From Patescibacteria group bacterium (GTDB taxonomy: Bacteria > Patescibacteriota > UBA1384 > XYA2-FULL-43-10): a DNA stretch of 32,000 nucleotides. Location: NCBI GenBank assembly GCA_041674405.1, contig JBAYVT010000002.1, positions 1 to 32,000 on the forward strand, in the 5' to 3' direction. A program made the translations under genes and the position numbers. Numbering within the stretch: the stretch's first letter is position 1; each line of letters begins with the position of its first letter. Below the pieces are notes generated by a model. The model ran no database searches and was not told where the DNA came from. It was given only the letters and a program-made list of their open reading frames with translations. This document shows, piece after piece, positions 1 through 17,171 of this stretch.

Positions 1-2452
<2,452 letters not shown>

Positions 2453-2783
2453 GAAATATACTTTAGATCAAAGTACTTTTCCCCCCGAAGGAGGAATAAT
2501 ACCTGACCTGTTTGACTAGCAATTACTGGATTCAACTTTCGTTGAAAAAATAATTGTTTTAATATTTTTATCGGAAGAATACATTTTGTGTAATTACATA
2601 TTAATTACTCATTTATTCAATTGTTAAAGTGCTGATAGGATTTCAATATACAAGTCCCTATCTTGTAGTTAAAATCCTGATTGTGTAACAAATTTGCTTG
2701 TCCCACCGGAGCCTAAAGGGCGAAGGGGGATGGACCATAAGGCTCGCAGCTGGTATCAAAAGTATATATCTCACATATAGGAA

Positions 2784-2807
2784 ACAAAAAATCCGCCGGA
2801 AAGCGGA
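2784..2807 (-). terminator. Rho-independent-type terminator upstream of the 23S leader
   Basis: Stem TCCGC/GCGGA (2792-2796 with 2803-2807), followed in minus-strand sense by a T-run (plus-strand A-run 2785-2791). It would stop transcription coming from the small ORF at 3084-3290. Confidence 0.5.
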
Positions 2808-3033
2808 ATGATTTAATGCCACAAAATAAACTTTGCGAAATTAAAATTATCCGCTGACCCCCTCTCTCGTAGTGTGATTGTTTCTCATAGTGCCTAAACC
2901 CGATTAATTTGTTCCTTTATCCTCGGGTAACTTGTGCGCAAAATCAACTTAACATAAACGCACAAACCTTGTCAACACTTTACAACTTATCAGTGGAGAG
3001 CAGAAAAATTACATTAATTAATCCCTCTGCTCT

Positions 3034-3061
3034 GCGTCGCATTCAATTTCGAATGCGACGC
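3034..3061 (-). terminator. 11-bp stem-loop just downstream of the small GC-rich ORF (no U-tract)
   Basis: GCGTCGCATTC (3034-3044) pairs perfectly with GAATGCGACGC (3051-3061). It lies 23 nt after the TGA of the 3084-3290 ORF. Confidence 0.45.
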
Positions 3062-3083
3062 GCCAGCTCTCCTCCTCCTACTC

Positions 3084-3290
3084 TCACCGGCACAGCTCGA
3101 TCAGTACCCGCTTGTACGCAGTCTGGAGTCCCCGAAGTTGCTCGAGATCGCTATCCGAGACCTTGTCCGCCGGTAGCCTCGAAGCTACGGCTTCGTATTC
3201 GACGATCTTCTCGAACCACGTGAGGACGTCGATTTTTGGCAGTGACTGCGGGTTACGCGGAATCGGATCCATCAATTCTCTCAGGTTCAT
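3084..3290 (-). CDS. Small hypothetical protein (68 aa) in a high-GC island
   Basis: ATG at 3290 is preceded by GAGAGGGGA. Third codon positions are mostly G/C (aac ctg ccg ccg aac ccg cag ctg atc gac gtc ctc acg...), in an otherwise AT-rich region. No family recognised. I prefer the internal Met (MNLRELMD...) to the track start at 3332. Confidence 0.6.
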   Translation of the reverse strand: MNLRELMDPIPRNPQSLPKIDVLTWFEKIVEYEAVASRLPADKVSDSDLEQLRGLQTAYKRVLIELCR

Positions 3291-3754
3291 ATTGATCCCC
3301 TCTCTGCCCTTGCAAGGATTGAGTACAGACAAGAAATTTCTATCACAAATTCAAACTTTTCGCAAACGCAGAGCTATGAAAATCTACTTTGAATTGAAAA
3401 ACTGCGGAAATAATCCAGCGGTTAAAAACTATTTCATTTTGATCCTATTTTTGTAACATCCTACAATCACTTCATCAGTTCTTAATTTTATATTGTGCTA
3501 TTTTTCAAAGAAACATGAGATTTATTATTTTAAGATTTCAATACGCTACAAGTTCGAGATACCGGGACCCAACAAATTTTTTGAACAACCGAGATGATTC
3601 TCCTTGGCACGGATTAATTTCCCACCCAAGGGATCTCTCAACTTTATTTCAAACATGGTCCAGACGGTATGTCGAACCCTACAACAAAAACGCCTTCCTC
3701 CGCCACATTGGCACAGGAGGGTGTTTTGTGTTCAGTCCGTAGCGAGTAGTCGAT

Positions 3755-3782
3755 AGTCCGTAGCGTATATTCTCTACGGACT
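3755..3782 (-). terminator. Stem-loop downstream of the 3807-4220 gene
   Basis: AGTCCGTAG (3755-3763) pairs with CTACGGACT (3774-3782). It sits in a cluster of TAGTCC/GGACTA motif copies. Confidence 0.4.
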
Positions 3783-3806
3783 AAGGACTATGGACTACAA
3801 ACTAGT

Positions 3807-4220
3807 TTATTGTTGGCTTGAGAATTTATTTATCGCATCCATAATTTTGCTGGAACTTTTCATATCTTCAAAGAACAAAATTTGGTCACGATTTATATAC
3901 ATTTGATCCTCTGGGCCATGGAGTTCACTTCCAAGTTTTATTAGCGACACTTTCTTATTTTGGTCCGTATTACTATTTTGCAAATCAGTTGTAGTTTTCA
4001 AATAGTATATATCGGTTAGTTTCACGATTTGGTCATCGGAATTCGAAATGTATCCGAAATATACTTGCCCATTTGTAAGAAAAACCGCCTGCCTCACACT
4101 ATGCTTATTTAATAAATATTTTTTATTGACGTAATATCCGCCAAATCCTGCAGCGACGATCACCACGACGATAATAATTATTGCAATGATCCAGCTCTTC
4201 CTCTTTGTAGACTTATCCAT
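3807..4220 (-). CDS. Membrane-anchored hypothetical protein (137 aa)
   Basis: Strong SD (AAAGAGGAG) 6 nt before ATG 4220. The N-terminus has a basic stretch then a hydrophobic helix (WIIAIIIIVVVIVAAGFGGYY). No recognisable catalytic motif. Confidence 0.8.
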   Translation of the reverse strand: MDKSTKRKSWIIAIIIIVVVIVAAGFGGYYVNKKYLLNKHSVRQAVFLTNGQVYFGYISNSDDQIVKLTDIYYLKTTTDLQNSNTDQNKKVSLIKLGSELHGPEDQMYINRDQILFFEDMKSSSKIMDAINKFSSQQ

Positions 4221-4534
4221 AGAATCTCCTCTTTATTGTTACTAATATATACTTACAAAATTCGTCCACAACTGGTGATCTCTAGTCCCTCAGACAAGGC
4301 CGTTATTCGCAAACCACAGCTCATCCGTTCAAGGATACAACAAAAATAAAACACATCAATTAGAATTTTTCACAAAAATTTTATCAAGATGCTGGCCTAT
4401 TGGTGTGAACTCTTCCATATAAAAAAAGCTGGTTATATATAAAAATTAATATGTGGACAACCAGGGTGGCAAATTTATTGCTTAGGTCGATACCCGAAAG
4501 GTAAAAGTATTAAGTAATAAATGAAAAAGGAGCA

Positions 4535-5395
4535 ATGATGGATTATTTAAAATTGGCAAAAATTGCACGTGTTGCCGCAGTATCGACTGCCTTTGTGTTT
4601 GCTGTCGGTTCGGGCGGAGCGCTTGCATCTGTCAGTGTTGGCGGCTCAAACGACACCACGGGACCAAATTCAGAAAATGAAAATGAATGGAAAATCGATG
4701 CCGATTATGATCTGGATGTGGATAACAATGCCGACTTAGAAAGTGAATTTGAGCTAGATGCAGAAACCGGTGATAATGACATCGATTGCAATACTGAGGT
4801 TGATGACATTCTTACTGGTGATATAGAAGGAGATATTTCCGTAGAGAATGAGCTTAATTCATCCGAAATCGAAGTCGGAACGGCAGATGTCGGCGACATT
4901 GAGGTTGACCTAGGAAATGAAACAACCGGGCCTTATTCAGAGAATGAGAACGAGGTCAGAATTTCAATGGATCGAGACATAGACATCGACAACGATGCAG
5001 ATGTTGAAAACGAGCTAGAACTTGATGCCAACACAGGAAAGAATCGCGTTCACAACAACACTGTTGTTGGAGATGTTCGAACCGGAGATGTTTCCCTAAG
5101 CGCTGATTTCTCCAATGTGCTTAATCAGGGAGAAATTGATTTGGGCGGACTTGGTGAAATGGACATCGAGGGAGACTTCGGAAATGAGCTAACCGGTCCA
5201 AATTCTGAAAACAGCAATGAGCTCGACATTGATGCTGACGTCGATGTAAATATCGATAACAATGCCGATATTGAAAATGAGCTTGAAGTTGATGCCAACA
5301 CTGGGAAAAACTGGATTGGCAAAAACACTGTTGTTGGTGATGTTGAGACAGGAAGTGTAGATCTTTCTTTTAGCGTTACCAACATGGCCAACTAG
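4535..5395 (+). CDS. Secreted acidic repeat protein (3 copies of a ~85-aa TGPNSEN...A(E/N)TG(D/K)N...TGD module)
   Basis: SD AAGGAG precedes ATGATG at 4535. Signal-peptide-like N-terminus (AAVSTAFVFAVGSGGALA). Three internal repeats begin at TTGPNSENENE, TTGPYSENENE and LTGPNSENSNE. Confidence 0.9.
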   Translation: MMDYLKLAKIARVAAVSTAFVFAVGSGGALASVSVGGSNDTTGPNSENENEWKIDADYDLDVDNNADLESEFELDAETGDNDIDCNTEVDDILTGDIEGDISVENELNSSEIEVGTADVGDIEVDLGNETTGPYSENENEVRISMDRDIDIDNDADVENELELDANTGKNRVHNNTVVGDVRTGDVSLSADFSNVLNQGEIDLGGLGEMDIEGDFGNELTGPNSENSNELDIDADVDVNIDNNADIENELEVDANTGKNWIGKNTVVGDVETGSVDLSFSVTNMAN

Positions 5396-5501
5396 TCCCC
5401 TGGATTAGACATTAGCGAGGACTCCGGTGTGAGTATGTCGAACACCTGGGTCCCGCAGATGTCGAATTAATTAACACTAATAATCAAACAATGGAGTGGC
5501 C

Positions 5502-7343
5502 ATGACAAAGGTTTATAGGAAAATGAAAAAAATTATTGCTGGAATAATGATTCTGGTCTTTGTGTCATTCTATTCATTACCAGCATTTGCTGCTGGTAAT
5601 ATTGGCCCGACCGGCCCACAGGAACCAACCGGAGCTATCGAACCAACTGGGCCGCAAACTCAAACTGGAGCTATTGAACCGACAGGTCCGCAGACACCGA
5701 CAGGTCCGCAGGAAATTATTTCAAACCCGATTGTGGAAACTTCGGGGACAGAGAATCAAACTGAACAAAATCTATCAAATAATTTTACCGGATCAAATTC
5801 TGAAAATCTAAATGATTCAAACTCTTCGGCCGACGCGAATATAAATCTTACGAATAATGCCGAGGCCGACAACGATATTAGTGCCAATTTAGTTACCGGT
5901 CAAAATGGAATTGGATCAAACACGGTGGTCGGTAATGTATCCACTGGCGATATCAACGGAAATGTTTGTGTTATTAATGCCCTAAATTCCTCGCTCGGGC
6001 CAGACGATTCTATTGGCGGACAGTCGATTAATACTTCAGGAATGAATGGCATCACTCTCGCTCCAGCTGATACCAGGCTAAACCTTCAAAATGCAACGAC
6101 CGGCGAAAATTCGGAAAATTCTAATGTTTTTAATGGCGGACAAGTTATCGATTTTTTCGAAGTTAACGATGCAGCCGCGAATAATTCTATTGAAATTGAT
6201 GCTGATACTGGCAACAACGAAATTTCCAACAATACCAAAGTCGGCGAGCTTCAGACCGGAGATATTGCCATCGCTGCAAATTTAATTAACCTTTTAAACA
6301 TTTCTCCGGAAATTGCACTTTCAATTGACTTTTGGAATCTTTTCGGCGGGCTTGTTGGGGATATCACTATCAGTGAAGCAAATGATATTACAGGTTCAGA
6401 TTCAGAGAATAAAAATTTGGTCAATCTGGATGGCGGGGAAGACATTTCGATCAGCAATAATTCTGAAACCAATAATAATATTAACTTGAGCGCCAATACC
6501 GGAGGCAATGCCATCGGTTCAAATACGGCAATTGGCGATATAAAAACCGGTGACTCAACAATCAAAAACACACTGGTGAATGTCGCCAATATCATTACTG
6601 CACCGGTTTTTTATCTGGTGAATGTCTTTGGTACATGGACCAGTGGAGCACTCCTTGGTATCGATCCATCGATGATATTTATTAATGAAATCAACAATAC
6701 AACAGGAACCAATTCGGAAAATTCCAATCTTGTTACTGCTGAAAATAATGCTGACCTATCGATCGAAAACAATGCTTTAATTAATAACAATTTGAATATT
6801 AAGGCCAACACCGGCAACAACAAAATTTCTAACAATACTGTTGCTGGCGGGCTCTCGACAGGTGATATAAAGCTCGCGTCCAATGTAATTAATATTTCCA
6901 ACCTGGTTGGAAAAGGCGCAAAAGCCTTCGCTCTCCGTATCATCAATATCTTCGGCAACTGGTGTGGTGGCGGAGACGGCAAGGGTGGAGGTGGCGATGA
7001 TAATAATGGTGGTGGCGAGAGTGATGGCAGCGATGAAAATGGTAGCGGACAGGGAGGCGGCGGTTTTTCGGAAAATCCAAGTGATACTGGCAGCAGCCTG
7101 GGTGGGTTTATCGGAAATGCAAAACCTTTGGCCAAACTCGCATCTTTCGAGCAAAGCAATGTTCTTCCGGACGCAGGCGGAAATTTAACAACAACTCAAA
7201 ATAATCCCGTAGTTAAATCGATGACCACAACCACTTCCAGGAGTGCCAAGGAGTTTATCTATTGGATTGCAGCAGCTAGTGCCGTTCTTATTCTCTGGGG
7301 ATCGATAGAATATTTGGCCTACAGAAAAATGAAAAAAATATAA
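5502..7343 (+). CDS. Large secreted/surface repeat protein of the same module family, with a Gly-rich linker and a C-terminal membrane anchor
   Basis: GGAG at 5493-5496 precedes ATG 5502 (the track start GTG 5496 is an alternative). It has a signal peptide and PTGPQ/EPTGP repeats. Four modules follow (FTGSNSEN, TTGENSEN, ITGSDSEN, TTGTNSEN ... ANTGxN ... TGD). The C-terminus has a GGGDGKGGGGDDNNGGG linker, then LPDAGG, then a hydrophobic helix and an RKMKKI tail. Confidence 0.9.
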   Translation: MTKVYRKMKKIIAGIMILVFVSFYSLPAFAAGNIGPTGPQEPTGAIEPTGPQTQTGAIEPTGPQTPTGPQEIISNPIVETSGTENQTEQNLSNNFTGSNSENLNDSNSSADANINLTNNAEADNDISANLVTGQNGIGSNTVVGNVSTGDINGNVCVINALNSSLGPDDSIGGQSINTSGMNGITLAPADTRLNLQNATTGENSENSNVFNGGQVIDFFEVNDAAANNSIEIDADTGNNEISNNTKVGELQTGDIAIAANLINLLNISPEIALSIDFWNLFGGLVGDITISEANDITGSDSENKNLVNLDGGEDISISNNSETNNNINLSANTGGNAIGSNTAIGDIKTGDSTIKNTLVNVANIITAPVFYLVNVFGTWTSGALLGIDPSMIFINEINNTTGTNSENSNLVTAENNADLSIENNALINNNLNIKANTGNNKISNNTVAGGLSTGDIKLASNVINISNLVGKGAKAFALRIINIFGNWCGGGDGKGGGGDDNNGGGESDGSDENGSGQGGGGFSENPSDTGSSLGGFIGNAKPLAKLASFEQSNVLPDAGGNLTTTQNNPVVKSMTTTTSRSAKEFIYWIAAASAVLILWGSIEYLAYRKMKKI

Positions 7344-7371
7344 GAAGATATACAAAACTTTAGTTAAGCTT

Positions 7372-7400
7372 GCGCTGCCACTCCGCGAGAGTGGCAGCGC
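7372..7400. terminator. Bidirectional stem-loop between convergent genes
   Basis: GCGCTGCCACT (7372-7382) pairs perfectly with AGTGGCAGCGC (7390-7400). It lies between the stop at 7343 (+) and the stop at 7404 (-). Confidence 0.6.
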
Positions 7401-7403
7401 CGG

Positions 7404-7865
7404 CTAATCGCTCTCCATCGCAAAAGCCAGCTGGCCCTGCGAGCTGCTTACCGATAAAACTGGCAAGCTAGCTATCCCCCGGCTACTTGCGACAACCACC
7501 TTCTCAACCTCAACCTGAAATCCGAGCTGAGCCCTCGGGAATCGGCGAAGGTTGATCGGCGCGTTCGTGAGCCTCCTGCCGCCTGGTTGATGAAAGCTAA
7601 TGGCCTCCAGGAAATTCAGCCAGTATCCAACCCACTTTTCCTGGTACCATACCTTCACCCAGACTTCCTCCGTCCTCACCCCGAATGGCTCATCGGTAGT
7701 CTCACCGAAATAGTACCCCACCGGCAGCTGTATTGACTTGTTCTTGTCCGGCTCGCCATCGATGGTCGGGCCAAGGACATACATGGCAATGGCATGGCCC
7801 ACGTTGGGTCTGACATGCAGATCGATGTCATCCGGCAAACGAATGCCTCCGGGCAAGTATTGCAT
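7404..7865 (-). CDS. Hypothetical protein (153 aa) in a high-GC island
   Basis: Full-length ORF with a marked G/C third-position bias (ccc gga ggc ... ccg gat gac atc gat ctg ... ggc ccg acc atc gat ggc gag ccg gac aag aac aag). AAGAGGC lies upstream of ATG 7865. No family recognised. Confidence 0.65.
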   Translation of the reverse strand: MQYLPGGIRLPDDIDLHVRPNVGHAIAMYVLGPTIDGEPDKNKSIQLPVGYYFGETTDEPFGVRTEEVWVKVWYQEKWVGYWLNFLEAISFHQPGGRRLTNAPINLRRFPRAQLGFQVEVEKVVVASSRGIASLPVLSVSSSQGQLAFAMESD

Positions 7866-7932
7866 TCACCGAGCCTCTTTCTTTCGGTTTGGTTTGGCAC
7901 GCTATATCAGTATATACCAAATTTTTAAAAAT

Positions 7933-7952
7933 AAAAAAACCGCCTAAGCGGG
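7933..7952 (-). terminator. Weak intrinsic terminator after the GrpB-family gene
   Basis: Short stem CCGC/GCGG (7940-7943 with 7948-7951), followed in minus sense by a T7 run (plus A-run 7933-7939). Confidence 0.4.
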
Positions 7953-8075
7953 ATTATTGATGGAATGTATTGTTGCTGGTTAGAAATATTATCGTGAGCC
8001 CAAATGAATGCGTTTATATTTCTAGTATAAGAATCAAAACAATTTATAGGGACAACTTTCCACGCAGTTCAATGG

Positions 8076-8630
8076 CTAGCTCAATTTACACCTACCTAAA
8101 ACGCTTTTTATAAATTCATCTTTAGCTTTTGAATAAGCTTTCCGATCATTTTCGTATTTTATTGCTAGCTTTTGCTTTAGATTTTCATATTCTTTTAGCA
8201 CATCCCTATCCGCCCTTAAGTAATCCCTGAATACTATTGTTTCTCTATATTTTGTACCCTCAATTTCCATAATGTGTATAAAATGAGTTATATAATCCGG
8301 TTTAATCTGACCCGGCTTTACTGGCACGCCTTTTCTCATGAGAATTTCACCGTCCGCATTGTCTTCCTTTATTGTATAGCTTGGAAACTTCAATATCTTT
8401 TCTTTTATCTTATTAATATCTTCAAGTGAATCAACGCCAACAGCAATATCAATTATTGGTTTTGCAGATAAACCGACAATGGAGGTAGAGCCCACATGTT
8501 CGATCGATTTTGCCACATCACCAAATATTTTTTCTAAAATTGTTTTTTCCTTATTAAACTCGTCCCGCCATTGCGGATTATATTTTTCGACTTTAACAAA
8601 ACCCTTTTTAAGACCAATTTCTTTTTTCAT
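8076..8630 (-). CDS. GrpB-family (nucleotidyltransferase-fold) protein
   Basis: IEHVGSTSIVGLSAKPIIDIAVGV and the C-terminal FRDYLRADRDVLKEYENLK are typical of GrpB/DUF-type proteins. This is recognised by eye only. Confidence 0.75.
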   Translation of the reverse strand: MKKEIGLKKGFVKVEKYNPQWRDEFNKEKTILEKIFGDVAKSIEHVGSTSIVGLSAKPIIDIAVGVDSLEDINKIKEKILKFPSYTIKEDNADGEILMRKGVPVKPGQIKPDYITHFIHIMEIEGTKYRETIVFRDYLRADRDVLKEYENLKQKLAIKYENDRKAYSKAKDEFIKSVLGRCKLS

Positions 8631-8653
8631 TAGAAGTATTTTTCTAAAGACAG

Positions 8654-8686
8654 AAAATGATTCATATTCTAAGTATGAATCATTTT
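8654..8686 (-). terminator. 13-bp hairpin terminator/attenuator between the Nudix and GrpB genes
   Basis: AAAATGATTCATA (8654-8666) pairs with TATGAATCATTTT (8674-8686). T-rich sequence follows in minus sense. Confidence 0.55.
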
Positions 8687-9098
8687 AACGTTCGAGATAG
8701 TTCAATTTGATAAATAATTTTCTTGAAGGTGGCACGATATCATAGTCTTTCAATTGTCCAATGGGTATCCATTCCAACTTTTGAATGCCAGGACTTAATT
8801 TTTCTTTTCCCCCAACATACTCACATAGAGTATCGAGATAAATAAAATGTTTCTCTTCCCCGTCAACATCTTTTTTAATTTCTGTGTCCCAGGATAACCT
8901 TTCAGAGATTTTAATATCTATGCCAGTCTTTGCTTTTACTTCTTGAGTGATAACATCTTCGGGACTTAGGCCTGCACTTAGCTCGCCGCCAAATAAATAC
9001 CAAGTTTCTTTATATGGTAATGAGCCGTCTGGTTTTTTACGCATTAAAACTGAATCACCTTTTTTAACAACACCGATTACTAAAATTTTCGTTTTCAT
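8685..9098 (-). CDS. Nudix-family hydrolase with a divergent Nudix box
   Basis: GGELSAGLSPEDVITQEVKAKTG aligns to the Nudix box GX5EX7REUXEEXGU, but REx and EE are not conserved. Size and beta-strand-rich flanks fit the family. Confidence 0.65.
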   Translation of the reverse strand: MKTKILVIGVVKKGDSVLMRKKPDGSLPYKETWYLFGGELSAGLSPEDVITQEVKAKTGIDIKISERLSWDTEIKKDVDGEEKHFIYLDTLCEYVGGKEKLSPGIQKLEWIPIGQLKDYDIVPPSRKLFIKLNYLER

Positions 9099-9112
9099 AA
9101 TCTTATAATGAC

Positions 9113-9181
9113 AGTTCTAGCGTTATTTTTCCATATATAATAAAAAGACTAGCCTTGGACTAATCTTTTTTTGGTAGACCC
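9113..9181. repeat. Left copy of a ~68-bp imperfect direct repeat (terminator hairpin plus tRNA 3'-end-like TGGTAGACCC)
   Basis: AGTTCT..ATAATAAAAAGACTAGCCTTGGACTAATCTTTTTTTGGTAGACCC matches 9793-9860 (AGTTCT..ATAATAAAAAGACTAGTCTAGAACTAATCTTTTTATTGGTGGACCC). Confidence 0.7.
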
Positions 9182-9266
9182 GATAGGATCTCGAGCATCG
9201 CTTACACTCCCTTGGAAAACCCTCGGTTTTCCAGTTTTCCGACCCCTTCCCGTTCGAATCCTCAGC
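9172..9266 (-). other. tRNA-Ala 3'-end remnant fused to a conserved hairpin element (copy A); possible att remnant or tRNA-derived sRNA
   Basis: Minus sense reads ...GGATTCGAACGGGAAGGGGTCGGAAAAC[TGGAAAACC GAG GGTTTTCCA]AGGGAGTGTAAGCGATGCTCGAGATCCTATCGGGTCTACCA. The last ~30 nt align with the 3' end of tRNA-Ala-UGC. The core is shared with 17063-17171. A terminator hairpin like that of the tRNA follows. Confidence 0.5.
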
Positions 9267-9457
9267 TTTAACTCACTAAATAAAAAATCACCATTAAGGC
9301 GACATTTTTGGTGGGGCACAATCCAAGAAGTAAGAAATATCGTTATGAATTCAAATGAGTATATCTGTATTCCAAAGATGAGAATTAAATCTCTCCATAT
9401 TTAGCGGCTATTTGCTTTTCCACCATTCTGTATAACATAGATTGATAGTATGGGACT

Positions 9458-9491
9458 CCAGTGTGATGACAACAAGTTGTCATCACACTGG
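9458..9491 (-). terminator. 16-bp-arm hairpin after the zinc-ribbon ORF
   Basis: CCAGTGTGATGACAAC (9458-9473) pairs perfectly with GTTGTCATCACACTGG (9476-9491). It lies 24 nt after the TGA at 9515. Confidence 0.5.
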
Positions 9492-9514
9492 CAGCTCTGT
9501 CGAGTCGGACTTCA

Positions 9515-9712
9515 TCAGCGGCAGTCTGGGCAAAGCCCACCCTCGAGGTACTGCGTGCGAACCGCTAGTCTGCACCTCGAACATCGCATCGCGGCACCGC
9601 TCAGCAATAACGCAGTCTCGTCCATGAGCTCGGTCTCCTCGAGATACGGGCTTTTGCCAGCAGTCGCCCCTGGCGGGTCGTTACTCGTCGGGGTACGTGT
9701 TAAATGCCCCAT
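9515..9712 (-). CDS. Small zinc-ribbon-like protein (65 aa) in a high-GC island
   Basis: Strong SD AAGGGAGG 8 nt before ATG 9712. Codons are G/C-rich at the third position. The C-terminus reads CSRC-x13-CPDC (a four-Cys knuckle pair). Confidence 0.65.
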   Translation of the reverse strand: MGHLTRTPTSNDPPGATAGKSPYLEETELMDETALLLSGAAMRCSRCRLAVRTQYLEGGLCPDCR

Positions 9713-9792
9713 TTGAACAGCCTCCCTTCACTTGTCGTCCGTCGGCCACTACAGAATTGCATACTTTATACTAATAGTCAATAACATGAGAT

Positions 9793-9860
9793 AGTTCTGA
9801 CCTATTTTTTGGTATAATAAAAAGACTAGTCTAGAACTAATCTTTTTATTGGTGGACCCT
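9793..9860. repeat. Right copy of the ~68-bp direct repeat (tRNA-Ala-UGC 3' end plus its terminator hairpin)
   Basis: See 9113-9181. It includes the hairpin AAAAGACTAG..CTAATCTTTT immediately 3' of the tRNA. Confidence 0.7.
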
Positions 9861-9925
9861 ATCGGATTCGAACCGATGACCTCCACAGTGCAAATGTGGC
9901 GCTCTACCAACTAAGCTAAGGGCCC
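9850..9925 (-). tRNA. tRNA-Ala (anticodon UGC), CCA encoded
   Basis: The reverse complement GGGCCCTTAGCTTAGTTGGTAGAGCGCCACATTTGCACTGTGGAGGTCATCGGTTCGAATCCGATAGGGTCCACCA folds as a cloverleaf. Anticodon loop is TTTGCAC. The G3:U70 identity pair is present. Confidence 0.95.
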
Positions 9926-9936
9926 AGATCGACGTA

Positions 9937-9965
9937 ATGATAGCATAAACGGGGCTATTTATCAA
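9937..9965 (-). promoter_or_regulatory. Sigma70-like promoter for tRNA-Ala-UGC
   Basis: Minus sense reads TTGATA (9965-9960), a 17-nt spacer, then TATCAT (9942-9937), 11 nt before the tRNA 5' end. The hexamers are the same as at the tRNA-Ile promoter. Confidence 0.6.
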
Positions 9966-9992
9966 CCTTATACACCCTCATCCCAACAGTAA

Positions 9993-10154
9993 TTAATATG
10001 GGTTTTGGGAATATAAATATGAATACACTGCGTAGAGAACTCCAATGACTAAAAGAGCAATAATAGATCCAATTACGAGCCCTCTATTTTTCTTTACAAT
10101 GCCCCAGATCAGGCATGAGAGCGAAACTATGATTAGAATCAAACCTGTTAACAT
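9993..10154 (-). CDS. Small two-helix membrane protein (53 aa)
   Basis: The internal ATG 10154 is preceded by AATTTTGGAGGG. The sequence has two hydrophobic helices (LTGLILIIVSLSCLIWGIV and LVIGSIIALLVIGVLYAVY). The track start at 10205 lacks an SD. Confidence 0.6.
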   Translation of the reverse strand: MLTGLILIIVSLSCLIWGIVKKNRGLVIGSIIALLVIGVLYAVYSYLYSQNPY

Positions 10155-10298
10155 TTGCCCTCCAAAATTTTGATTATCTGTGCTTAAAACTTCACTACAT
10201 ACCAAAATGCACTTAATATTTTAATGTATTGTGAATGATAGCGTTATGACTTTATAAATATATTTTTATGCAAACCGCGCCTTGAACTGCGTATGCAG

Positions 10299-10964
10299 CT
10301 AACGTGTCGAGGTGATAGCAATAGAATGAATCAGCTCGTTATTGAAATAAACATTCAGATCAAACTGCCCGACTTCATTAAATTGAAAACCCGTCCCTTT
10401 GCCCGGGTTGGAAATTGTTTGTTTTTCGGTAACAAACGCTCTTTCACCAGTCTCTTGGTTTATGACCTCTACCCAAAACTCTCCCGTGGTTCCTTTGGTA
10501 TCGGTAATATCTACCTCGATTGACATTCCTGCTTTGAATTCAGTGGTAGGCACAGGAATATTATCTGGACCGGGCGGCGTCCCGGGTTTCATTTGGCCGA
10601 TTTCAATTTTGTCAAAATATTTTGTGTATGATGGCTTCACAGCACAAATTTTGGATTTACATAGCAGGCCATCCTTGCAATCTTTGTAGGTTGCGCAGCT
10701 GCTTCCGACTTCGCCATTCGTACACCTTCCACTGGAGCAAAAATCGGTTTTGCAGTCCTCTTTGACACTGCAGGTCGAGCCCAATTTGCCCGAGGAACAA
10801 ACACCCGATATACAACTTGTACCTTCGGTACAGCGGTTGTTTGCTTTGCAAGCCTGGCCCTCGGGGACCTTTTTGATGAAATAATACCAACCGGCAAATC
10901 CGGCACCAGCAAGAATGATTACGCCCAAAACTACAGAGATAATTATTATCGCGGTCTTGTTCAT
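10299..10964 (-). CDS. Membrane-anchored Cys-rich repeat protein (221 aa)
   Basis: SD AAGGAGGAAG precedes ATG 10964. There is an N-terminal TM helix. Three repeats of a four-Cys motif follow (CKANNRCTEGTSCISGVC, CSVKEDCKTDFCSSGRC, CATYKDCKDGLLCKSKIC), then a beta-rich C-terminal domain. Confidence 0.85.
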   Translation of the reverse strand: MNKTAIIIISVVLGVIILAGAGFAGWYYFIKKVPEGQACKANNRCTEGTSCISGVCSSGKLGSTCSVKEDCKTDFCSSGRCTNGEVGSSCATYKDCKDGLLCKSKICAVKPSYTKYFDKIEIGQMKPGTPPGPDNIPVPTTEFKAGMSIEVDITDTKGTTGEFWVEVINQETGERAFVTEKQTISNPGKGTGFQFNEVGQFDLNVYFNNELIHSIAITSTR

Positions 10965-10989
10965 CTTCCTCCTTATTATTTTTTGTTAT

Positions 10990-11184
10990 CTAGAATTTAA
11001 CTACATACCAAAATGCTGCTACAATCACGAGTACCCCAACAATTTTCCAAAAAGTATAAGTTCCATATGCACCGAGCACTTTTTCAACGGAAGGAAAACG
11101 CATCGTATTGTCGGTGATCCATTTTGCATATTTAATAAGAAGATAACCGAATAATATTAAAGCGATAAAAATTAAATATTTCAT
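10990..11184 (-). CDS. Small two-helix membrane protein (64 aa)
   Basis: ORF with two hydrophobic segments (YLIFIALILFGYLLI and IVGVLVIVAAFWYVV). It is tightly packed between neighbouring minus-strand genes. Confidence 0.6.
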   Translation of the reverse strand: MKYLIFIALILFGYLLIKYAKWITDNTMRFPSVEKVLGAYGTYTFWKIVGVLVIVAAFWYVVKF

Positions 11185-11193
11185 ATTCAGTCC

Positions 11194-11643
11194 TTAGTTA
11201 TTAGTCCATAGTTTTAGTGATTCTCCCACAGCCCACTTTGCAAAATCACTGGCATTCGATTTTAGGAATTCTTCGGGTTTCATCCATGTCACAATATGGT
11301 CATCTTCGATTGATTCAGCTTCGTTAATCTTATCCAATTTGGCCAAATAAAACGTGCCTAGCTTATTCATTGATTCCCTGCCTTCTTTCTGAAAATATTG
11401 ATTTGCGTTTCCTAAATATTTCAAATCGCAAATATCGCATCCTGATTCTTCGTAAGTTTCTCGAACCACTGTTATCTTTGGGTCTTCATTATTATCAATC
11501 CCACCTCCGGGTAAGTGAAAGGAACCATTCACATTTAAACATAAAATCTGCCCCGATTCATCAGAAACTACCGCATAAGCCCCTGGCCTTTCTCGATATG
11601 TTCCGAGTGGTTTTGTTCCGAATTGAAATATTTTATTTGACAT
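11194..11643 (-). CDS. Nudix-family hydrolase
   Basis: Canonical Nudix box GGGIDNNEDPKITVVRETYEESGC (GX5EX7REUXEEXGU). Confidence 0.85.
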   Translation of the reverse strand: MSNKIFQFGTKPLGTYRERPGAYAVVSDESGQILCLNVNGSFHLPGGGIDNNEDPKITVVRETYEESGCDICDLKYLGNANQYFQKEGRESMNKLGTFYLAKLDKINEAESIEDDHIVTWMKPEEFLKSNASDFAKWAVGESLKLWTNN

Positions 11644-11684
11644 TAGAAATTAGTAATTAGTCATTACAAACCTTGGGTTTGCTC

Positions 11685-13064
11685 TCACTCTTCTCTCCAT
11701 GACAGAATCGCATAAGATCCTGTGGTTGGATATTCTGGGGGCGGGCTTAACGTGAGGTATGGGTCATAAGTTTGCAATGTATTTCGATAACCGGCGATAA
11801 CAGTACTTCCCGAAACCCACGACCATGTCCAGTACTGATTTGTTGAAATGCTTCCATATATGGAAATGGAGCTTTTGACAGGTCCTTTGCTATCAGGATA
11901 CCAGACATGGCCGGTTTGGGACAGAAGGGCCGCGTCAATTTCCAACGATGAAACTGCATAATCGGGTATTTCAATATTACCCTGGGAAACAAGACCAATT
12001 GAGGCAGTGCCATCTTTGGCTCCGTACAACAAATTATCCTTAATTTTGATCAATGCTGGGCCTGATTTGTCTATATAGGCAGCAATTGTAATCCGGCCAT
12101 TATATGTACCATCTACCCAAACATTATCATTGACATATACTACTCCGTTTCCAGGCGCATCTAAAGTTCCCAAAAAGTTTGCAGTGATGCCGGTTGACCT
12201 CTCACCACTCACCCGGTATTCATCAATCTTTCCATCTGAGCGCAACTTTAGATAATAGCCGCGTGATTTTGAGGAATCCAGATATATACCACCGGTTTTG
12301 GACTCGGTTTTTAAGTTGGCAAAATCCACGCTTACTCGATTAAAATCAACCGTCGGCACCGGAAAAACCCAATAGTTTTTTGGTCCCCCATTGCCCCAAA
12401 CGCCATCATGTAGTTGGCCATCTCCACCAAAACTTGATGTCGGCCTATATGTTGCCGAAGATGAACTGATAATTCCATTTGCTGTTCCGTCAAAATGCAC
12501 TCCGACATTGGAATGAACAGGGCCGTTTGTTGTTTCATTTACACCAAACCAGCATTCAGTATTTGTCAAAAATGCGTATCTTGCAAATGAGGGCATGCCA
12601 AGATCTGCCAGAACAATCCTATCCATGCTCTCCCCTTTGATTTTTCCGACCGCTTTCACATTCACCACCGCATCTCCAAGCCCAGGTGGGGTTATATACA
12701 AGTCATACGTTCCAACTACATTTCCAGATTGATCAGTATAGTCGTGAGCATAAGGTCCATAAGGCCCGTCTCCCTGGGGGCAAACGTTGCCATCGCAATA
12801 ATCCTTGTTGTCGTGTGCCAAATGCCACATATAATAATTGACTCCTGCTTCGGCTACATCAAGTGCCGAGACTGTCTGCATGTGCAATTTTGCATCCTTT
12901 AGGTTGGATAGAGCAAAACCGGCTACCGCCATCGATAACCCCAAAAATAATACCGAAGTGACCATAATCACCGGAAGGTAGGCGCCTTTTTGAAAGCTTA
13001 TTTTTGACCCTTGCCCGCCTTGAGCAGGGCCGAAGGGATTTTCGATCTTTGGCTTAATGATCAT
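11685..13064 (-). CDS. PilX-like type IV pilus minor component (459 aa)
   Basis: The N-terminal segment GAYLPVIMVTSVLFLGLSMAVAGFALSN...ALDVAEAGVNYYMW resembles the PilX N-terminal domain (hydrophobic helix followed by an AEAG motif). Its start overlaps the upstream pilin stop (ATGA at 13061-13064). Confidence 0.7.
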   Translation of the reverse strand: MIIKPKIENPFGPAQGGQGSKISFQKGAYLPVIMVTSVLFLGLSMAVAGFALSNLKDAKLHMQTVSALDVAEAGVNYYMWHLAHDNKDYCDGNVCPQGDGPYGPYAHDYTDQSGNVVGTYDLYITPPGLGDAVVNVKAVGKIKGESMDRIVLADLGMPSFARYAFLTNTECWFGVNETTNGPVHSNVGVHFDGTANGIISSSSATYRPTSSFGGDGQLHDGVWGNGGPKNYWVFPVPTVDFNRVSVDFANLKTESKTGGIYLDSSKSRGYYLKLRSDGKIDEYRVSGERSTGITANFLGTLDAPGNGVVYVNDNVWVDGTYNGRITIAAYIDKSGPALIKIKDNLLYGAKDGTASIGLVSQGNIEIPDYAVSSLEIDAALLSQTGHVWYPDSKGPVKSSISIYGSISTNQYWTWSWVSGSTVIAGYRNTLQTYDPYLTLSPPPEYPTTGSYAILSWREE

Positions 13065-13645
13065 AGGTTTGTTTTAAGATTTCTCAAATTAACCCTGGTT
13101 ATTGTGGTCACCGCATCCGGGCTTTTGTTCGGATCTTTATCAACCATAATTTGGAATTGCACCATTCTCACAGCATCGGTCGGTACCGGATCAGAAATCT
13201 GCGAGCTGGTATCGTTAAAATAACGAAACAAATCTGATCCATTGGTGACGTTTTTGATTATCATGCTTACATTTTCTTCTTCAGGTGGATAATTAAATAC
13301 CGGCCCAGGCCCCGTGGGCTCTATAATCCCTTTCTTAAATTCACCATTTTCGGAAAAGTATCTAACTTTGCTCGGAGCAGGCTGCTCATCGCCGAGAAGA
13401 TATGCATAAAATTCGTAGGTATCGGCAGTGGAAGCAATAACCTGTGTACTTCCTCTTGCATTTTTCTCGAAATCACGCATTGCTTTAGCAGCCTCCTCTT
13501 GCGAACTGATCGCTTCCTGGCCATAACGGTAGCTTTGGAACCCTCTTACAATCATCGTTGCAACCACGATTCCAATTACGCCAAGAAGCAAGATGACGAA
13601 TGTCATCTCGACCAAGGTAAATGCTTTTTTTGTGCTAATTTTCAT
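13061..13645 (-). CDS. Prepilin-type N-terminal cleavage/methylation domain protein (pseudopilin, 194 aa)
   Basis: MKISTKKAFTLVEMTFVILLLGVIGIVVA: a short basic leader, then the FTLVE motif and a hydrophobic helix, typical of type IV pilins and pseudopilins. Confidence 0.85.
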   Translation of the reverse strand: MKISTKKAFTLVEMTFVILLLGVIGIVVATMIVRGFQSYRYGQEAISSQEEAAKAMRDFEKNARGSTQVIASTADTYEFYAYLLGDEQPAPSKVRYFSENGEFKKGIIEPTGPGPVFNYPPEEENVSMIIKNVTNGSDLFRYFNDTSSQISDPVPTDAVRMVQFQIMVDKDPNKSPDAVTTITRVNLRNLKTNL

Positions 13646-13742
13646 CGAAAACCTATCAAATTTTAGTAATTTTCAAGTTGTAATTTTCCAACCTCGGCTC
13701 GTGCCTCGGCCGAGACGGGTGATTTTTGAGTTTTGAATTAGA

Positions 13743-15158
13743 CTATGGTGCCACTATCTCAAACACACCCGGCTGATTGGCAAATTCACCGCCAGGATTT
13801 TCGATATAAATATCGTATTTTCCTAGATCAAAAAGCGAAAGATCAAAATCTACATCGATGGTTGTTCCTGACTTGACAGAAATATTTGTGCCTAAAATCT
13901 CTTTGGTTGCATTTTTCAATTTTATTATCGGTTCGTTGCTAAAATTTTCTCCGGTGATTGTGAGGGTAGCAATATCACCCTTCACCCCTGTCGGCGGTGT
14001 AATTGAGCGTATTCTTGGCGCTGTCGCAGAATCTGTTAAATAAATGATGACCTGAAGAGTAGAATTTGGAGCGAGATGGACGGGTTGAACAGGCGAAATT
14101 GCTGAAATATATTTATCGGCAGATAAAATTGTAAAATTATAATCATCCCATTCCATGCCAGTAAGCGACAAACTGCCGTTTGCATCAGTCTGTTGATCTT
14201 GTGAGTATTTATGGGTAACGGGATTAAAATATATTTCTTTACTACCCTCAAGATGAAAACTTATATTGGGCACAAGAACCCCATTCAGATCAGCCGTTTG
14301 AATATTTAATGTGCTAACTTTATCTATCGTAAGCGTCACATTTGTAACCTGTTGTGCCAAAATATCAATATCCGGTTGAAGCTGGTTGGGATTTTGTGGT
14401 GTACGCGGATAGGTCATATCGGTAGAGTATCCATCTTTTGTAACCACAATATGATATTCATTATGCTGATCCGGCGGAAGGCTTGGCACCATGATACAGC
14501 CCGTAAGATCGGTTGTGAATTGCATATCCACGGGCGGATCAACATTGGGGTTTTGCAGAGTTGCTTGGGCATCGACAACTGGTTGATTGTTTGCATCGAT
14601 CACGCACAGATATAAAATACCGGAATTGGTTGGAGTTTCAGCTGCTTTCGCTGAAATATTTGTCGTAAGAGTCGCAAGCGGATCTGGCCGACCAACCTTA
14701 TATACCTTTACCTCGGCTTTTTTATAGTCATACGGATAGATATCTTGCGGTTTTCCGGGAATGCTTCCGGCCACATTCCCATCAAAGGGATCATCTACAT
14801 AACTAATTGTCGTATGCACATTATATTGAATATTATTTTCTGTTATTGGTTCATCATCAAGAATCTCGCCCGGAGGATAAATCGTTCCGTGTATAGTCGC
14901 CAATGAATCGTAGGGCAAATTGCGAATATCCTCCATTTTTTCATTCGCAATAGCTACAGCTGCTACTTTGGCCTTTGCCATCAAGATCCCTTTTTCCGCT
15001 GCCATAAATGAGGAAACGATAGCAGTTGCAACCAAAGCAATCACAATAAAATCAACCAAAACCTCAATTATGGTAAAACCACTGGTCTTGTTTTGCTTTT
15101 TAGCTCGATACTTGATACTTGATATTTGATGATGGCAGATGTTCCCTCTCTTCCACAT
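13743..15158 (-). CDS. Large PilV-like minor pilin with C-terminal Ig-like/IPT-type domains (471 aa)
   Basis: SGFTIIEVLVDFIVIALVATAIVSSF is a prepilin motif that follows a long leader. AVAIANEKMEDIRNLPYDSL is PilV-like. The C-terminus PRIRSITPPTGVKGDIATLTITGENFS resembles an IPT/TIG fold. Confidence 0.8.
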   Translation of the reverse strand: MWKRGNICHHQISSIKYRAKKQNKTSGFTIIEVLVDFIVIALVATAIVSSFMAAEKGILMAKAKVAAVAIANEKMEDIRNLPYDSLATIHGTIYPPGEILDDEPITENNIQYNVHTTISYVDDPFDGNVAGSIPGKPQDIYPYDYKKAEVKVYKVGRPDPLATLTTNISAKAAETPTNSGILYLCVIDANNQPVVDAQATLQNPNVDPPVDMQFTTDLTGCIMVPSLPPDQHNEYHIVVTKDGYSTDMTYPRTPQNPNQLQPDIDILAQQVTNVTLTIDKVSTLNIQTADLNGVLVPNISFHLEGSKEIYFNPVTHKYSQDQQTDANGSLSLTGMEWDDYNFTILSADKYISAISPVQPVHLAPNSTLQVIIYLTDSATAPRIRSITPPTGVKGDIATLTITGENFSNEPIIKLKNATKEILGTNISVKSGTTIDVDFDLSLFDLGKYDIYIENPGGEFANQPGVFEIVAP

Positions 15159-15169
15159 CTACAATGATA

Positions 15170-15613
15170 CTACTTTAGGATCAAAATTAAAACCGAAAAT
15201 GCAATAAATATTGCTTGTATTGAAAGCCCCAAAAATGGGCCAATTTTTATCGCCTGAATCTTGTCGTGAACATAATGCATTTTGTCCCCAAACCAAGTCT
15301 TTTGAAAATTCTTTTTCCAAAAAGGGGCTACGTCGAGAATGTCAGGCAAAAGACAACCAAATGCTCCCGAAATAAACGCAACTGGATGACTAATTTTGTC
15401 ATAAAAAATCACAAACAAAACAACACCAATTAATATATCCAACAGAATTAAGACGTTTTGCCGCAATGTAAATTTGCCATCATCGGTCGTGTCAAAATGG
15501 GGAATTGAGTCGAGAATAAAATGCAAAATAAATCCGGCGAAAAAAGCAGGAATTGGCGAATTAATGTATTCGCCGGCAATACCACCAATAAATCCATGAG
15601 TTGCAAAAAGTAT
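15170..15613 (-). CDS. DUF457/YdjM-like membrane-bound metal-dependent hydrolase; start codon unclear
   Basis: The family N-terminal motif THGFIGG is encoded upstream of the only canonical start (TTG 15526). The reading frame is open back to the codon ATA at 15613-15611. That codon directly follows the TAA of the preceding ORF and lies 5 nt after AAGGGGG. Confidence 0.6.
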   Translation of the reverse strand: MLFATHGFIGGIAGEYINSPIPAFFAGFILHFILDSIPHFDTTDDGKFTLRQNVLILLDILIGVVLFVIFYDKISHPVAFISGAFGCLLPDILDVAPFWKKNFQKTWFGDKMHYVHDKIQAIKIGPFLGLSIQAIFIAFSVLILILK

Positions 15614-16000
15614 TTATTCCCCCTTTAATTGCTCAATAAATATTCTGTAAGCATCGGGGGTAGCTAGCAGTTTTCCAGTTCCATTTTCAAATTCTGTGAT
15701 TCGCAAATCGGTAAATGGTGCATCCACCTCATAATCATTAGCTTCGTCTTCGGTCATCAGCACCATGGGTGATCCAGCACTTTCTTTGTTTCCCGGTGCG
15801 CGGTTATCCCAAACTATCCCTCCCCAGGTCCTTACCAACGAAAGGCCGTCTATTCCTGACGGAAATTTTGCTTTTACTTTACCTTGACGAATCCAGCCCG
15901 ATTCATCACCAAGCACTTCCGGCTCAATTTGCCGCTCCTCAGTATCTGGCCCCACATCTTCCGGTCCGGGTCTGCGTCCGATGTTTATTCCGAATACCAT
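15614..16000 (-). CDS. Hypothetical protein (128 aa), GC-rich at its 5' half
   Basis: ATG 16000 is preceded by AATTTTGGAGGAAAT. The 203-aa track ORF extends over a tRNA gene and so is too long. No family recognised. Confidence 0.6.
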   Translation of the reverse strand: MVFGINIGRRPGPEDVGPDTEERQIEPEVLGDESGWIRQGKVKAKFPSGIDGLSLVRTWGGIVWDNRAPGNKESAGSPMVLMTEDEANDYEVDAPFTDLRITEFENGTGKLLATPDAYRIFIEQLKGE

Positions 16001-16102
16001 ATTTCCTCCAAAATTTTGATTATAATTAACAGATAAATGAGACTGATAGCTTGCTATAAGTTTTGTCGAATGGCCTGCCATAAGCAAATGAAGCGAGTCG
16101 AA

Positions 16103-16189
16103 TGGTGGACCTACCGGGAATTGCCCGTCTCGCTTTGGCGCAGCCGAGGCGGAAACCCGAAACTGAGCAATACGCCCCGTACCACATCT
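16103..16189 (-). other. tRNA-like remnant ending in a copy of the tRNA-Ala-CGC 3' end (TAGGTCCACCA)
   Basis: The 11 nt at 16103-16113 are identical to 16190-16200. The segment begins GGTACGGGGCG, which is complementary to CCCCGTACCC just upstream of the tRNA. Confidence 0.45.
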
Positions 16190-16263
16190 TGGTGGACCTA
16201 GCGAGAGTCGAACTCGCGTCTCCACAATGCGAATGTGGAATCGTACCGCTAGACCATAGGCCC
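16190..16263 (-). tRNA. tRNA-Ala (anticodon CGC), CCA encoded
   Basis: Reverse complement GGGCCTATGGTCTAGCGGTACGATTCCACATTCGCATTGTGGAGACGCGAGTTCGACTCTCGCTAGGTCCACCA. Anticodon loop is TTCGCAT. G3:U70 is present. The D stem is short (3 bp). Confidence 0.8.
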
Positions 16264-16359
16264 AAATGGGTACGGGGTAAAAATGCCTGCTACCTGCCCC
16301 GTATTGAACTCTGTTCTGATACTGGGGTGCCGTTTAACTATAGGCCCATTATCAGTATT

Positions 16360-16388
16360 AATATAGCGCTCGAAGCTAAATTTTTCAA
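16360..16388 (-). promoter_or_regulatory. Sigma70-like promoter upstream of tRNA-Ala-CGC
   Basis: Minus sense reads TTGAAA (16388-16383), a 17-nt spacer, then TATATT (16365-16360). Confidence 0.5.
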
Positions 16389-16396
16389 GATCGAAA

Positions 16397-17035
16397 CTAA
16401 ACAATTCCTTCGGATTCGCGATTTAGTTCATCAAAGAATTTAATCATAAAATCATGCCGCCTTTTAGCGATGCGTCTTCCCTCTTTTGTGAGGAGTTTGT
16501 TTTTAACCTTCGACATGTGCAAGATGAACTCGCGGTAAGCAGTATCTTCCTTAGTATATTCGAATTCTTTTCCGAGCTTGGGTTTCGGATCATGCACACG
16601 GGAACCTATTTCACCTGCAAATACGAATGAGCGAGCCACTCCGATTGCGCCGCAATTATCCAATTTATCTGCATCAAAAAGCACTTTTGCTTCTATTGTT
16701 TCAGGAATTCCGCCCTTTTTTGATCTGTGGCGTTCAATGCAATGGGCTACGGAATCAATAAATTCTGGTTCGAGCTCGTATTTCGTAAGGATCTGCCTAG
16801 CTTTTTTCGCCCCAAGCTCGGCATGACAGATTTCTCCCTTAGACAACCGCTCTTCATCGCGGGCAATATCGTGGAGCAAGGTTGCATAATGCAAGACTCG
16901 TATGTCTGCCCCTTCATCTTTGCCGATATGTAGTGCCATTTTAAGAACTCTCTCAGTATGATCAAAATCATGACACCCGGGCGATTTCTCAAAAATGTTT
17001 CTGACTTCTTTTTCGATTGCTTTGATTTTATTCAT
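16397..17035 (-). CDS. HD-domain metal-dependent phosphohydrolase
   Basis: HDFDHTERV...LLHDIAR...FDADKLD are the His/Asp motifs of the HD superfamily. Confidence 0.85.
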   Translation of the reverse strand: MNKIKAIEKEVRNIFEKSPGCHDFDHTERVLKMALHIGKDEGADIRVLHYATLLHDIARDEERLSKGEICHAELGAKKARQILTKYELEPEFIDSVAHCIERHRSKKGGIPETIEAKVLFDADKLDNCGAIGVARSFVFAGEIGSRVHDPKPKLGKEFEYTKEDTAYREFILHMSKVKNKLLTKEGRRIAKRRHDFMIKFFDELNRESEGIV

Positions 17036-17062
17036 AGATATATTCTAACAAAAAAATCCATT

Positions 17063-17171
17063 TGGTGGGCGTGAGAGGAATCTCACGCGCTTCGCTTTTC
17101 AGAACCCTCGGTTCTGAATTATCTCCTACACGGGAAACTTCTGTTTCCCGACCCCTTCCCGGGTCCGATTC
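17063..17171 (-). other. tRNA-Ile 3'-end copy fused to a conserved hairpin element (copy B); pseudo-tRNA, att remnant or sRNA
   Basis: Minus sense reads CGGGAAGGGGTCGG[GGGAAAC AGAA GTTTCCC]GTGTAGGAGATAAT[TCAGAACC GAG GGTTCTGA]AAAGCGAAGC[GCGTGAGA TTCC TCTCACGC]CCACCA. The last 20 nt are identical to the tRNA-Ile 3' end. Confidence 0.5.

Follow-up and report, generated by a model that had tools for sequence, protein, structure and literature searches.

Within a 32,000-nucleotide stretch of the genome of a Patescibacteria group bacterium (positions 1 to 32,000 of contig JBAYVT010000002.1, assembly GCA_041674405.1; hereafter, the window), three short open reading frames (ORFs) encoding 68, 153, and 65 amino acids, here called o68, o153, and o65, form sharply bounded GC-rich islands in AT-rich surroundings. 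We posit, with moderate confidence, that these are small protein-coding accessory genes without a known family, that they sit in variable intergenic slots, and that they are cassette-like without being integron cassettes. An initial annotation had placed a fourth ORF, o128, beside them and had read all four as outliers in GC content at third codon positions (GC3), either acquired recently from a high-GC donor or forming a distinct class of small cassette-like genes. The four ORFs, and the hairpins that follow three of them, are listed here.

3034-3061, minus strand: hairpin 3′ of o68, perfect 12-bp stem, -23.4 kcal/mol, z -4.3
3084-3290, minus strand: o68, 68-aa GC-rich ORF (alternative TTG start at 3332), predicted protein-coding, a complete orphan
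7372-7400, minus strand: hairpin 3′ of o153, perfect 13-bp stem, -30 kcal/mol, z -5.8, between convergent genes
7404-7865, minus strand: o153, 153-aa GC-rich ORF (144-aa version at NCBI), beta-rich protein
9458-9491, minus strand: hairpin 3′ of o65, perfect 15-bp stem, -27 kcal/mol, z -5.7
9515-9712, minus strand: o65, 65-aa GC-rich ORF for an acidic protein whose C terminus carries a zinc-ribbon-like CxxC-x12-CxxC motif
15614-16000, minus strand: o128, 128-aa ORF of ordinary GC3 that belongs to a small family in Patescibacteria and may be OB-fold-like

The compositional contrast is large. GC3 is 0.70 in o68, 0.68 in o153, and 0.67 in o65 (overall GC, 0.56 to 0.61), which places them about 6 standard deviations away from 26 other ORFs of the window that we selected as the background (0.382 ± 0.051; maximum, 0.46). 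Measured over 40 nt at a time, GC rises abruptly from 0.2-0.35 to 0.5-0.68 at the borders 3034/3330, 7370/7890, and 9458/9750. The description of four outliers therefore stands for o68, o153, and o65 (0.67 to 0.70 versus 0.38 ± 0.05) and fails for o128, whose GC3 of 0.40 falls inside the background distribution; the GC-rich 5′ half of o128 (GC at first positions [GC1], 0.60) reflects amino acid content, not third positions. In the three islands, codon-position periodicity is strong, with GC2 well below GC1 and GC1 below GC3 (GC1/2/3 of 0.61/0.36/0.70 for o68 and 0.59/0.40/0.68 for o153). A fifth GC-rich block of the window, at 19260-19540 upstream of the 16S rRNA gene (GC, 0.53 to 0.68), provides an internal control: it has no periodicity in any of the six frames (0.53 to 0.59 throughout), no Rfam match, and no fold signal, and the periodicity of o68, o153, and o65 is thus read as a coding signature. 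In the related locus L012, the region matching this block is AT-rich. As the initial annotation had it, Shine-Dalgarno (SD)-like motifs precede all four ORFs.

Are the three islands genes? The evidence is best for o65, which has two homologues, P0014 (77% identity) and P0015 (75%), among which the four Cys of the zinc-ribbon-like motif are invariant. Between o65 and its syntenic copy in the related locus L003, substitutions number 9/9/26 by codon position, with 0.13 nonsynonymous (dN) and 1.04 synonymous (dS) substitutions per site, the latter resting on 65 codons and lying near saturation; dN/dS is ~0.13, compared with a dN of 0.35 and a dS of 0.88 in the neighboring 64-aa gene. This pattern shows that o65 is a real protein gene under purifying selection, and, judging by its motif, our guess is that it may encode a small zinc-ribbon regulator or binding protein. 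For o153 there is a single homologue, P0010, which is 53% identical by BLASTP and 49% identical across the global alignment; the two share a conserved block, ISFHQPGG[RK]RLT.APINL.RF. Substitutions there are distributed 55/48/88 by codon position (dS is saturated), which supports coding for o153 as well, more weakly than for o65. The AlphaFold2 (AF2) model of o153 was unusable, with a predicted local distance difference test score (pLDDT) of 36. Paralogy of o153 with o128 and with a GC-rich ORF beside its homologue was considered and rejected, neither comparison being significant. The coding status of o68 is probable, based on its periodicity, its SD motif plus ATG, and the way in which the ORF fills the island.

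Families of known function or origin account for none of these proteins. Searches of Pfam, PHROGs, NCBIfam, and PADLOC with the four ORFs and two neighbors of their homologues returned nothing usable, and a sequence search of the PDB returned only noise. No relatives were found among IMG/VR viral contigs (o153, o68, and o65) or by tblastn against INPHARED (o153). With no PHROG, PADLOC, phage, or viral-contig match, the genes do not qualify as phage or defense derived. Among 5.8 billion proteins, the sole match to o68 is o68 itself, and no homologue of the islands comes from a high-GC organism. High GC3 is a property of the families and not of the window copies alone: values are 0.67, 0.73, and 0.52 in the o65 family and 0.68 and 0.57 in the o153 family, each GC-richer than its own neighbors, with the L003 copy of o65 (0.73) standing among genes of 0.18 to 0.36.

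The slot that holds o65 has a defined anatomy. Its boundaries, and a conserved part of its interior, are as follows.

9136-9194, minus strand: second repeat copy (tRNA-Ala 3′ end and terminator, T1′), right slot boundary
9305-9393, minus strand: AT-rich element of ~85 nt ending in ...CCACCAAAAA, conserved right-hand part of the slot, with matches in L003 and L008
9813-9925, minus strand: tRNA-Ala(UGC) plus terminator T1, left slot boundary, with the first repeat copy at 9813-9871

The repeats at 9136-9194 and 9813-9871 are identical at 52 of 60 positions and span the segment of the tRNA gene from the T-loop to the terminator; the corresponding repeats match at 41 of 47 positions in L003 and at 38 of 41 in L008. 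From left to right, the slot comprises the tRNA-Ala gene with T1 (a promoter-like site lies at 9965-9937 by the tRNA gene), an AT-rich leader, o65 with its hairpin, the ~85-nt element, a second terminator with a hairpin-rich element, and the repeat. L003, which shares the 23S leader at 84% and the 64-aa gene at 57% amino acid identity, has the same tRNA-Ala gene, T1, o65, hairpin, AT-rich element, and T1′, and the AT-rich leader, SD motif, and flanks of the o65 unit are co-inherited with the ORF. L008, which shares a pilin cluster at about 60 to 70% identity, has the same tRNA gene, T1, AT-rich element, and T1′ but carries an AT-rich 225-aa ORF in place of o65. In L007, the tRNA-Ala gene is present and the slot is absent. 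With a tRNA-Ala repeat of 41 to 60 nt, alternative cargo in L008, and no slot in L007, the suggestion of a cassette-like class is borne out for o65; it does not extend to o128, which belongs to a conserved small family. Copies of the ~85-nt element (TTCTCATCTTTGGAATA...TGTGYYCCACCAAAAA) occur at 3474-3562 and 4948-5033 in L003 and at 11229-11315 in L008. The element always lies just upstream of a terminator, and one L003 copy follows purD. Directly upstream of the tRNA-Ala gene with alternative cargo, L008 also contains a 353-aa ORF (9159-10220) that by eye resembles a DDE transposase.

The three 3′ hairpins were described initially as perfect and without U-tracts, and so they are: the stems of 12, 13, and 15 bp are not followed by a T-run, and our terminator scan omits all three, while the same scan does list the U-tailed tRNA terminators; the nearby GrpB terminator is likewise U-tailed. 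Lacking a U-tract, the hairpins do not qualify as intrinsic (Rho-independent) terminators. The o65 hairpin is also conserved in L003, where a compensatory change sets its sequence, CCAGGGTG..CACCCTGG, apart from the CCAGTGTG..CACACTGG of the window. Fold z-scores of the transcripts are -2.8 for o68, -0.7 for o65, and -4.5 for o153, much of which (about half in o153) is due to the terminal hairpins, beyond which the transcripts are not notably structured.

All four ORFs lie inside a broken rRNA operon, whose stable RNA genes, located with ARAGORN and Rfam, are all on one strand.

1-2460, minus strand: 23S rRNA gene
9850-9925, minus strand: tRNA-Ala(UGC), ARAGORN/Rfam
16190-16263, minus strand: tRNA-Ala(CGC), ARAGORN/Rfam
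17215-17291, minus strand: tRNA-Ile, ARAGORN/Rfam
17533-18983, minus strand: 16S rRNA gene

The 16S and tRNA-Ile genes are separated from the 23S gene on the same strand by ~15 kb that holds protein genes and the two tRNA-Ala genes. Read along the minus strand, the order is 16S, tRNA-Ile, an HD-domain gene, tRNA-Ala(CGC), o128, a pilin-like cluster, tRNA-Ala(UGC), o65, NUDIX and GrpB genes, o153, two large repeat proteins on the opposite strand, o68, and 23S. The stable-RNA neighbors named in the initial annotation (23S, tRNA-Ala[UGC], and tRNA-Ala[CGC]) are where it put them. Unlinked rRNA genes have been reported to be common in Patescibacteria (bioRxiv 10.1101/705046).

In total, these observations are consistent with a model in which each unit would consist of an AT-rich, host-type promoter and SD motif, a GC-rich ORF, and a perfect GC-rich stem-loop that may define or protect the mRNA 3′ end. 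Such units would occupy variable gaps of the broken rRNA operon, the gene order around tRNA genes being fluid in this lineage. Based on the alternative cargo in L008, we infer that genes may move in and out of the o65 slot, either through recombination of its conserved flanks or with the help of an integrase supplied in trans. The GC-richness would be foreign in origin and then maintained, or it would itself be selected, for example, for mRNA stability. The idea of gene-sized islands with host-like expression signals fits o68, o153, and o65, each of which has AT-rich signals in front; the signal of o128 turns out to be a local duplicate, as discussed below.

Several points weigh against this model. 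The dS of o65 comes from 65 codons and is nearly saturated; o68 has no homologue to confirm that it codes; and the searches turned up no donor lineage. Neither an integrase nor a transposase was noticed among the larger ORFs of the window, only ten of which were scanned with Pfam. No target-site-like direct repeats above chance flank the o68 and o153 islands. Finally, the persistence of high GC3 in o65 means either that composition is maintained or that the unit was acquired separately at the same site in two lineages, and the latter would run counter to the model.

Could the islands instead be recent, gene-sized transfers from a high-GC donor, such as an actinobacterial episymbiont host, whose composition and terminators have not yet ameliorated? 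We regard this as possible, though a less probable account than maintained accessory genes. The abrupt borders and a GC3 near 0.7 are what it predicts, and the hairpins differ from nearby host terminators in having no U-tracts. U-less ("I-shaped") hairpin terminators have been described for high-GC Actinobacteria, and the island hairpins share with them a perfect GC-rich stem-loop without a U-tract straight after the stop codon; the difference is that the host here is AT-rich and its other terminators are U-tailed, and the hairpins are putative terminators. By this analogy, the U-less hairpins would fit the terminator style of a high-GC donor, yet the one behind o65 has been conserved within the recipient lineage. 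Patchiness also favors recent transfer: o68 is an orphan, and the related loci recovered, none of which covers the two sites, contain neither o68 nor o153 (L003 has other genes upstream of its 23S leader). So do other GC-rich genes of ordinary function in L003, where a dUTPase/dCMP-deaminase fusion (GC, 0.53) and NDK (0.51) lie at 618-2261 beside 23S in an AT-rich background. In L009, a 328-aa ORF (5775-6761) without a phage match lies on a stretch of ~0.5 to 0.6 GC, and these genes of L003 and L009 together indicate that compositional mosaicism is general in the lineage.

What sets recent transfer back is o65. The gene is syntenic in L003 at a dS of ~1, and both copies have kept their GC3 (0.67 and 0.73) in backgrounds of 0.2 to 0.4, whereas a neutral import would decay toward 0.3. 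A GC3 near 0.7 kept over this distance is not the unameliorated mark of a very recent transfer, and the proposal of recent acquisition is thus contradicted for this gene. In addition, the promoters, SD motifs, and flanks of the islands are AT-rich and, in o65, came down with the ORF, and no high-GC organism appears among the homologues. The high-GC donor proposed initially was not found.

The same persistence of GC3 would be expected if the three were native, lineage-specific genes in which high GC is selected (for mRNA stability or structure or for escape from AT-targeting nucleases or silencers) and no transfer took place. The families are GC-rich in three different backgrounds, the 3′ hairpin is conserved with a compensatory change, and the o153 transcript is more structured than its shuffles (z of -4.5, about half from the hairpin). 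We nevertheless consider native origin unlikely. The genes are patchy, with o65 absent from L007 and L008, o153 represented by one homologue, and o68 by none; the slot has alternative cargo; and, hairpin aside, the transcripts of o68 and o65 show no unusual degree of structure.

It is very improbable that the blocks are structured noncoding RNAs, or remnants of rRNA, tRNA, or introns, with accidental ORFs. GC-rich blocks in AT-rich genomes are usually stable RNAs, the islands lie within a broken rRNA operon, and at 56 to 61% GC, long ORFs are expected in several frames. However, searches against Rfam at the gathering threshold (whole window), at E ≤ 1 (2400-20000), and at E ≤ 10 (subregions) returned only the rRNAs and tRNAs and no island match; codon periodicity is strong; the dN/dS of o65 largely refutes this explanation for that gene; and fold z-scores are unremarkable apart from the hairpins. 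Chimeric assembly, in which reads of a GC-rich organism were joined into an AT-rich contig, might be suspected from the abrupt borders and the metagenomic source of the genome but is hardly credible, given that the junctions are identical in independent assemblies in ENA, JGI, Logan, and NCBI (L002 and L041-L044, from other samples and other assemblers), that a diverged relative has the o65 island in synteny, and that host-type signals abut each ORF. The o68 sequence is identical in 5 contigs from several samples, including that of a 98.4%-identical strain (L042) that has zero differences within the o68 island.

How does this locus relate to known systems? We see in it a variation on island biology already known rather than a category of its own; its closest counterparts are tRNA-linked genomic islets and integrase-less cis-mobilizable elements (CIMEs). 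A complete tRNA gene together with a partial one is a signature of integration at a tRNA gene (PMC9897764). The o65 slot and its counterparts in L003 and L008 likewise pair a complete tRNA gene on one side with a partial 3′ copy on the other, and they resemble such islets in the atypical composition of the cargo and in its variation among relatives (the 225-aa ORF of L008 and the missing slot of L007). They differ in that the o65 unit, at ~0.7 kb with a single 65-aa gene, has no room for an integrase ORF, and the o65 repeat runs through the terminator; o68 and o153 are without such anatomy. Integron cassettes are similar in being gene-sized, with a short ORF followed by a hairpin-forming inverted repeat and a host-atypical composition. 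However, the island stems are perfect and short, whereas attC is an imperfect repeat with RYYYAAC...GTTRRRY and extrahelical bases, and no paired attC core sites were found at the islands, with one chance GTTAAGC beside the o153 hairpin. The islands also lie 2 to 4 kb apart among ordinary genes, with no intI-like ORF, attI, or array seen, and their ORFs have their own promoter-like AT-rich leaders. Finally, ORFan or horizontally acquired islets with atypical GC3 are comparable as patchy compositional outliers without a family assignment, except that the GC3 of o65 persists over about one synonymous substitution per site, which acquisition followed by amelioration does not predict.

The acquisition and retention of accessory genes in the reduced genomes of Patescibacteria are poorly understood. 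At this locus, units of one gene each, atypical in composition, occupy exchangeable slots next to tRNA genes within a broken rRNA operon, and o65, which has kept a GC3 near 0.7 against a background of 0.2 to 0.4 through a long divergence, offers a concrete case in which to weigh amelioration against selection for nucleotide composition.

The remaining ORF, o128, is of another kind. It has three homologues at 40 to 52% identity and is syntenic with a pilin gene in L005; in L012 and L007 it is absent, and in L012 a membrane-protein gene directly follows tRNA-Ile. If any of the four ORFs were to be called an ordinary core gene of the lineage by its homologues, it would be o128, and only in part. 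Its AF2 model (pLDDT of 74) gives weak matches to SSB/PriB-like folds (E of 0.05 to 0.5), and the protein possibly resembles OB folds weakly. The leader and SD region of o128 at 15995-16023 (ATAATCAAAATTTTGGAGG) is an 86% copy of 10149-10177, the leader of a 70-aa ORF at 9993-10205; what was taken for a "host-like" expression signal at o128 is thus locally duplicated. At 15600-15616 on the minus strand, the o128 stop codon TAA abuts ATA-CTT-TTT, where L012 and L007 have the ATG-CTT that starts the membrane-protein gene. Judging from this comparison, the gene downstream of o128 may have lost its ATG or may use a nonstandard start.

The hairpin-rich part of the o65 slot belongs to a tRNA-linked element that recurs in the window and across the candidate phyla radiation (CPR).

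9171-9290, minus strand: degenerate element copy with the first core hairpin deleted (covariance-model match at 9206-9261, 36.7 bits, E of 2e-8)
16102-16263, minus strand: tRNA-Ala(CGC) followed by a GC-rich stretch of ~90 nt whose end matches the tRNA 3′ end at 15 of 17 positions
17059-17291, minus strand: full element copy with tRNA-Ile and its own terminator (covariance model, 88.1 bits)

The full copy proper (17059-17175) lies downstream of tRNA-Ile and finishes with 22 nt identical to the 3′ end of that tRNA gene (17061-17082 repeats 17213-17234). The degenerate copy lies at the end of the o65 slot farthest from the tRNA gene and likewise terminates in a repeat of the tRNA-Ala 3′ end. A weaker copy is seen at 16102-16190. 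The core of the element is a conserved two-hairpin structure, GGGAAGGGGTCGGGAAAC..GTTTCCCG...AACCGAGGGTT, in which both hairpins covary, and no family in Rfam 15 matches it. Scanning the GTDB representative genomes with the pattern GGGAAGGGGTCGG N8-38 AACCGAGGGTT yielded 27 loci (L014-L040), all in Patescibacteria, that span Kaiser-, Nomura-, Sacchari-, Pacei-, Lipton-, Colwell-, Wolfe-, Adler-, and Sungiibacteria. At 21 of the 27, a tRNA gene with the same orientation precedes the element by 10 to 89 nt; 14 tRNA isotypes are represented among them, and the tRNA-Ile of the window is a fifteenth. At these 21 loci, the 3′ flank of the element is an exact repeat of 9 to 24 nt of the 3′ part of the neighboring tRNA, and the 5′ flank is the reverse complement of 7 to 16 nt of its T-loop/T-stem region; pairing of cognate flanks is stronger than that of noncognate ones (-17.8 versus -12.1 kcal/mol). 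The covariance model adds copies after other tRNA genes in the same loci, with several copies per locus in L027, L017, and L035 and, in L027, copies after all three tRNA genes. We found nothing relevant in the literature on a tRNA-downstream RNA or element in CPR. A role as a leader regulating downstream genes was rejected, those genes being heterogeneous, mutually unrelated, and in either orientation.

Could this element have built the o65 slot? It is conceivable, though we think it quite improbable, that the slot is the work of undescribed, CPR-wide, miniature elements without an integrase, for which the 3′ end of any tRNA gene would serve as a homing target. The folded single-strand flanks of such an element would mimic the T-arm and acceptor duplex of a tRNA gene, like the forked-hairpin attP of CTX-type phages, and small GC-rich units of an ORF plus a hairpin, such as o65, would be occasional cargo. 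Alternatively, the RNA of the element would form an acceptor-like minihelix ending in NCCA. Linked as it is to tRNA genes in many CPR classes, the element may be either a novel class of RNA or mobile DNA of a new, tRNA-targeting kind.

Two further features of the window can be added. The 16S gene is flanked by a 21-nt pair (17400-17420 and 19048-19068) that is 95% complementary and resembles a processing stem. On the plus strand at 4535-7343, two adjacent secreted or anchored proteins of 286 and 615 aa are built of diverged 267-nt repeats with a recurring N.TGPNSEN motif, and the 615-aa protein has a Gly-rich tail and a C-terminal membrane anchor.

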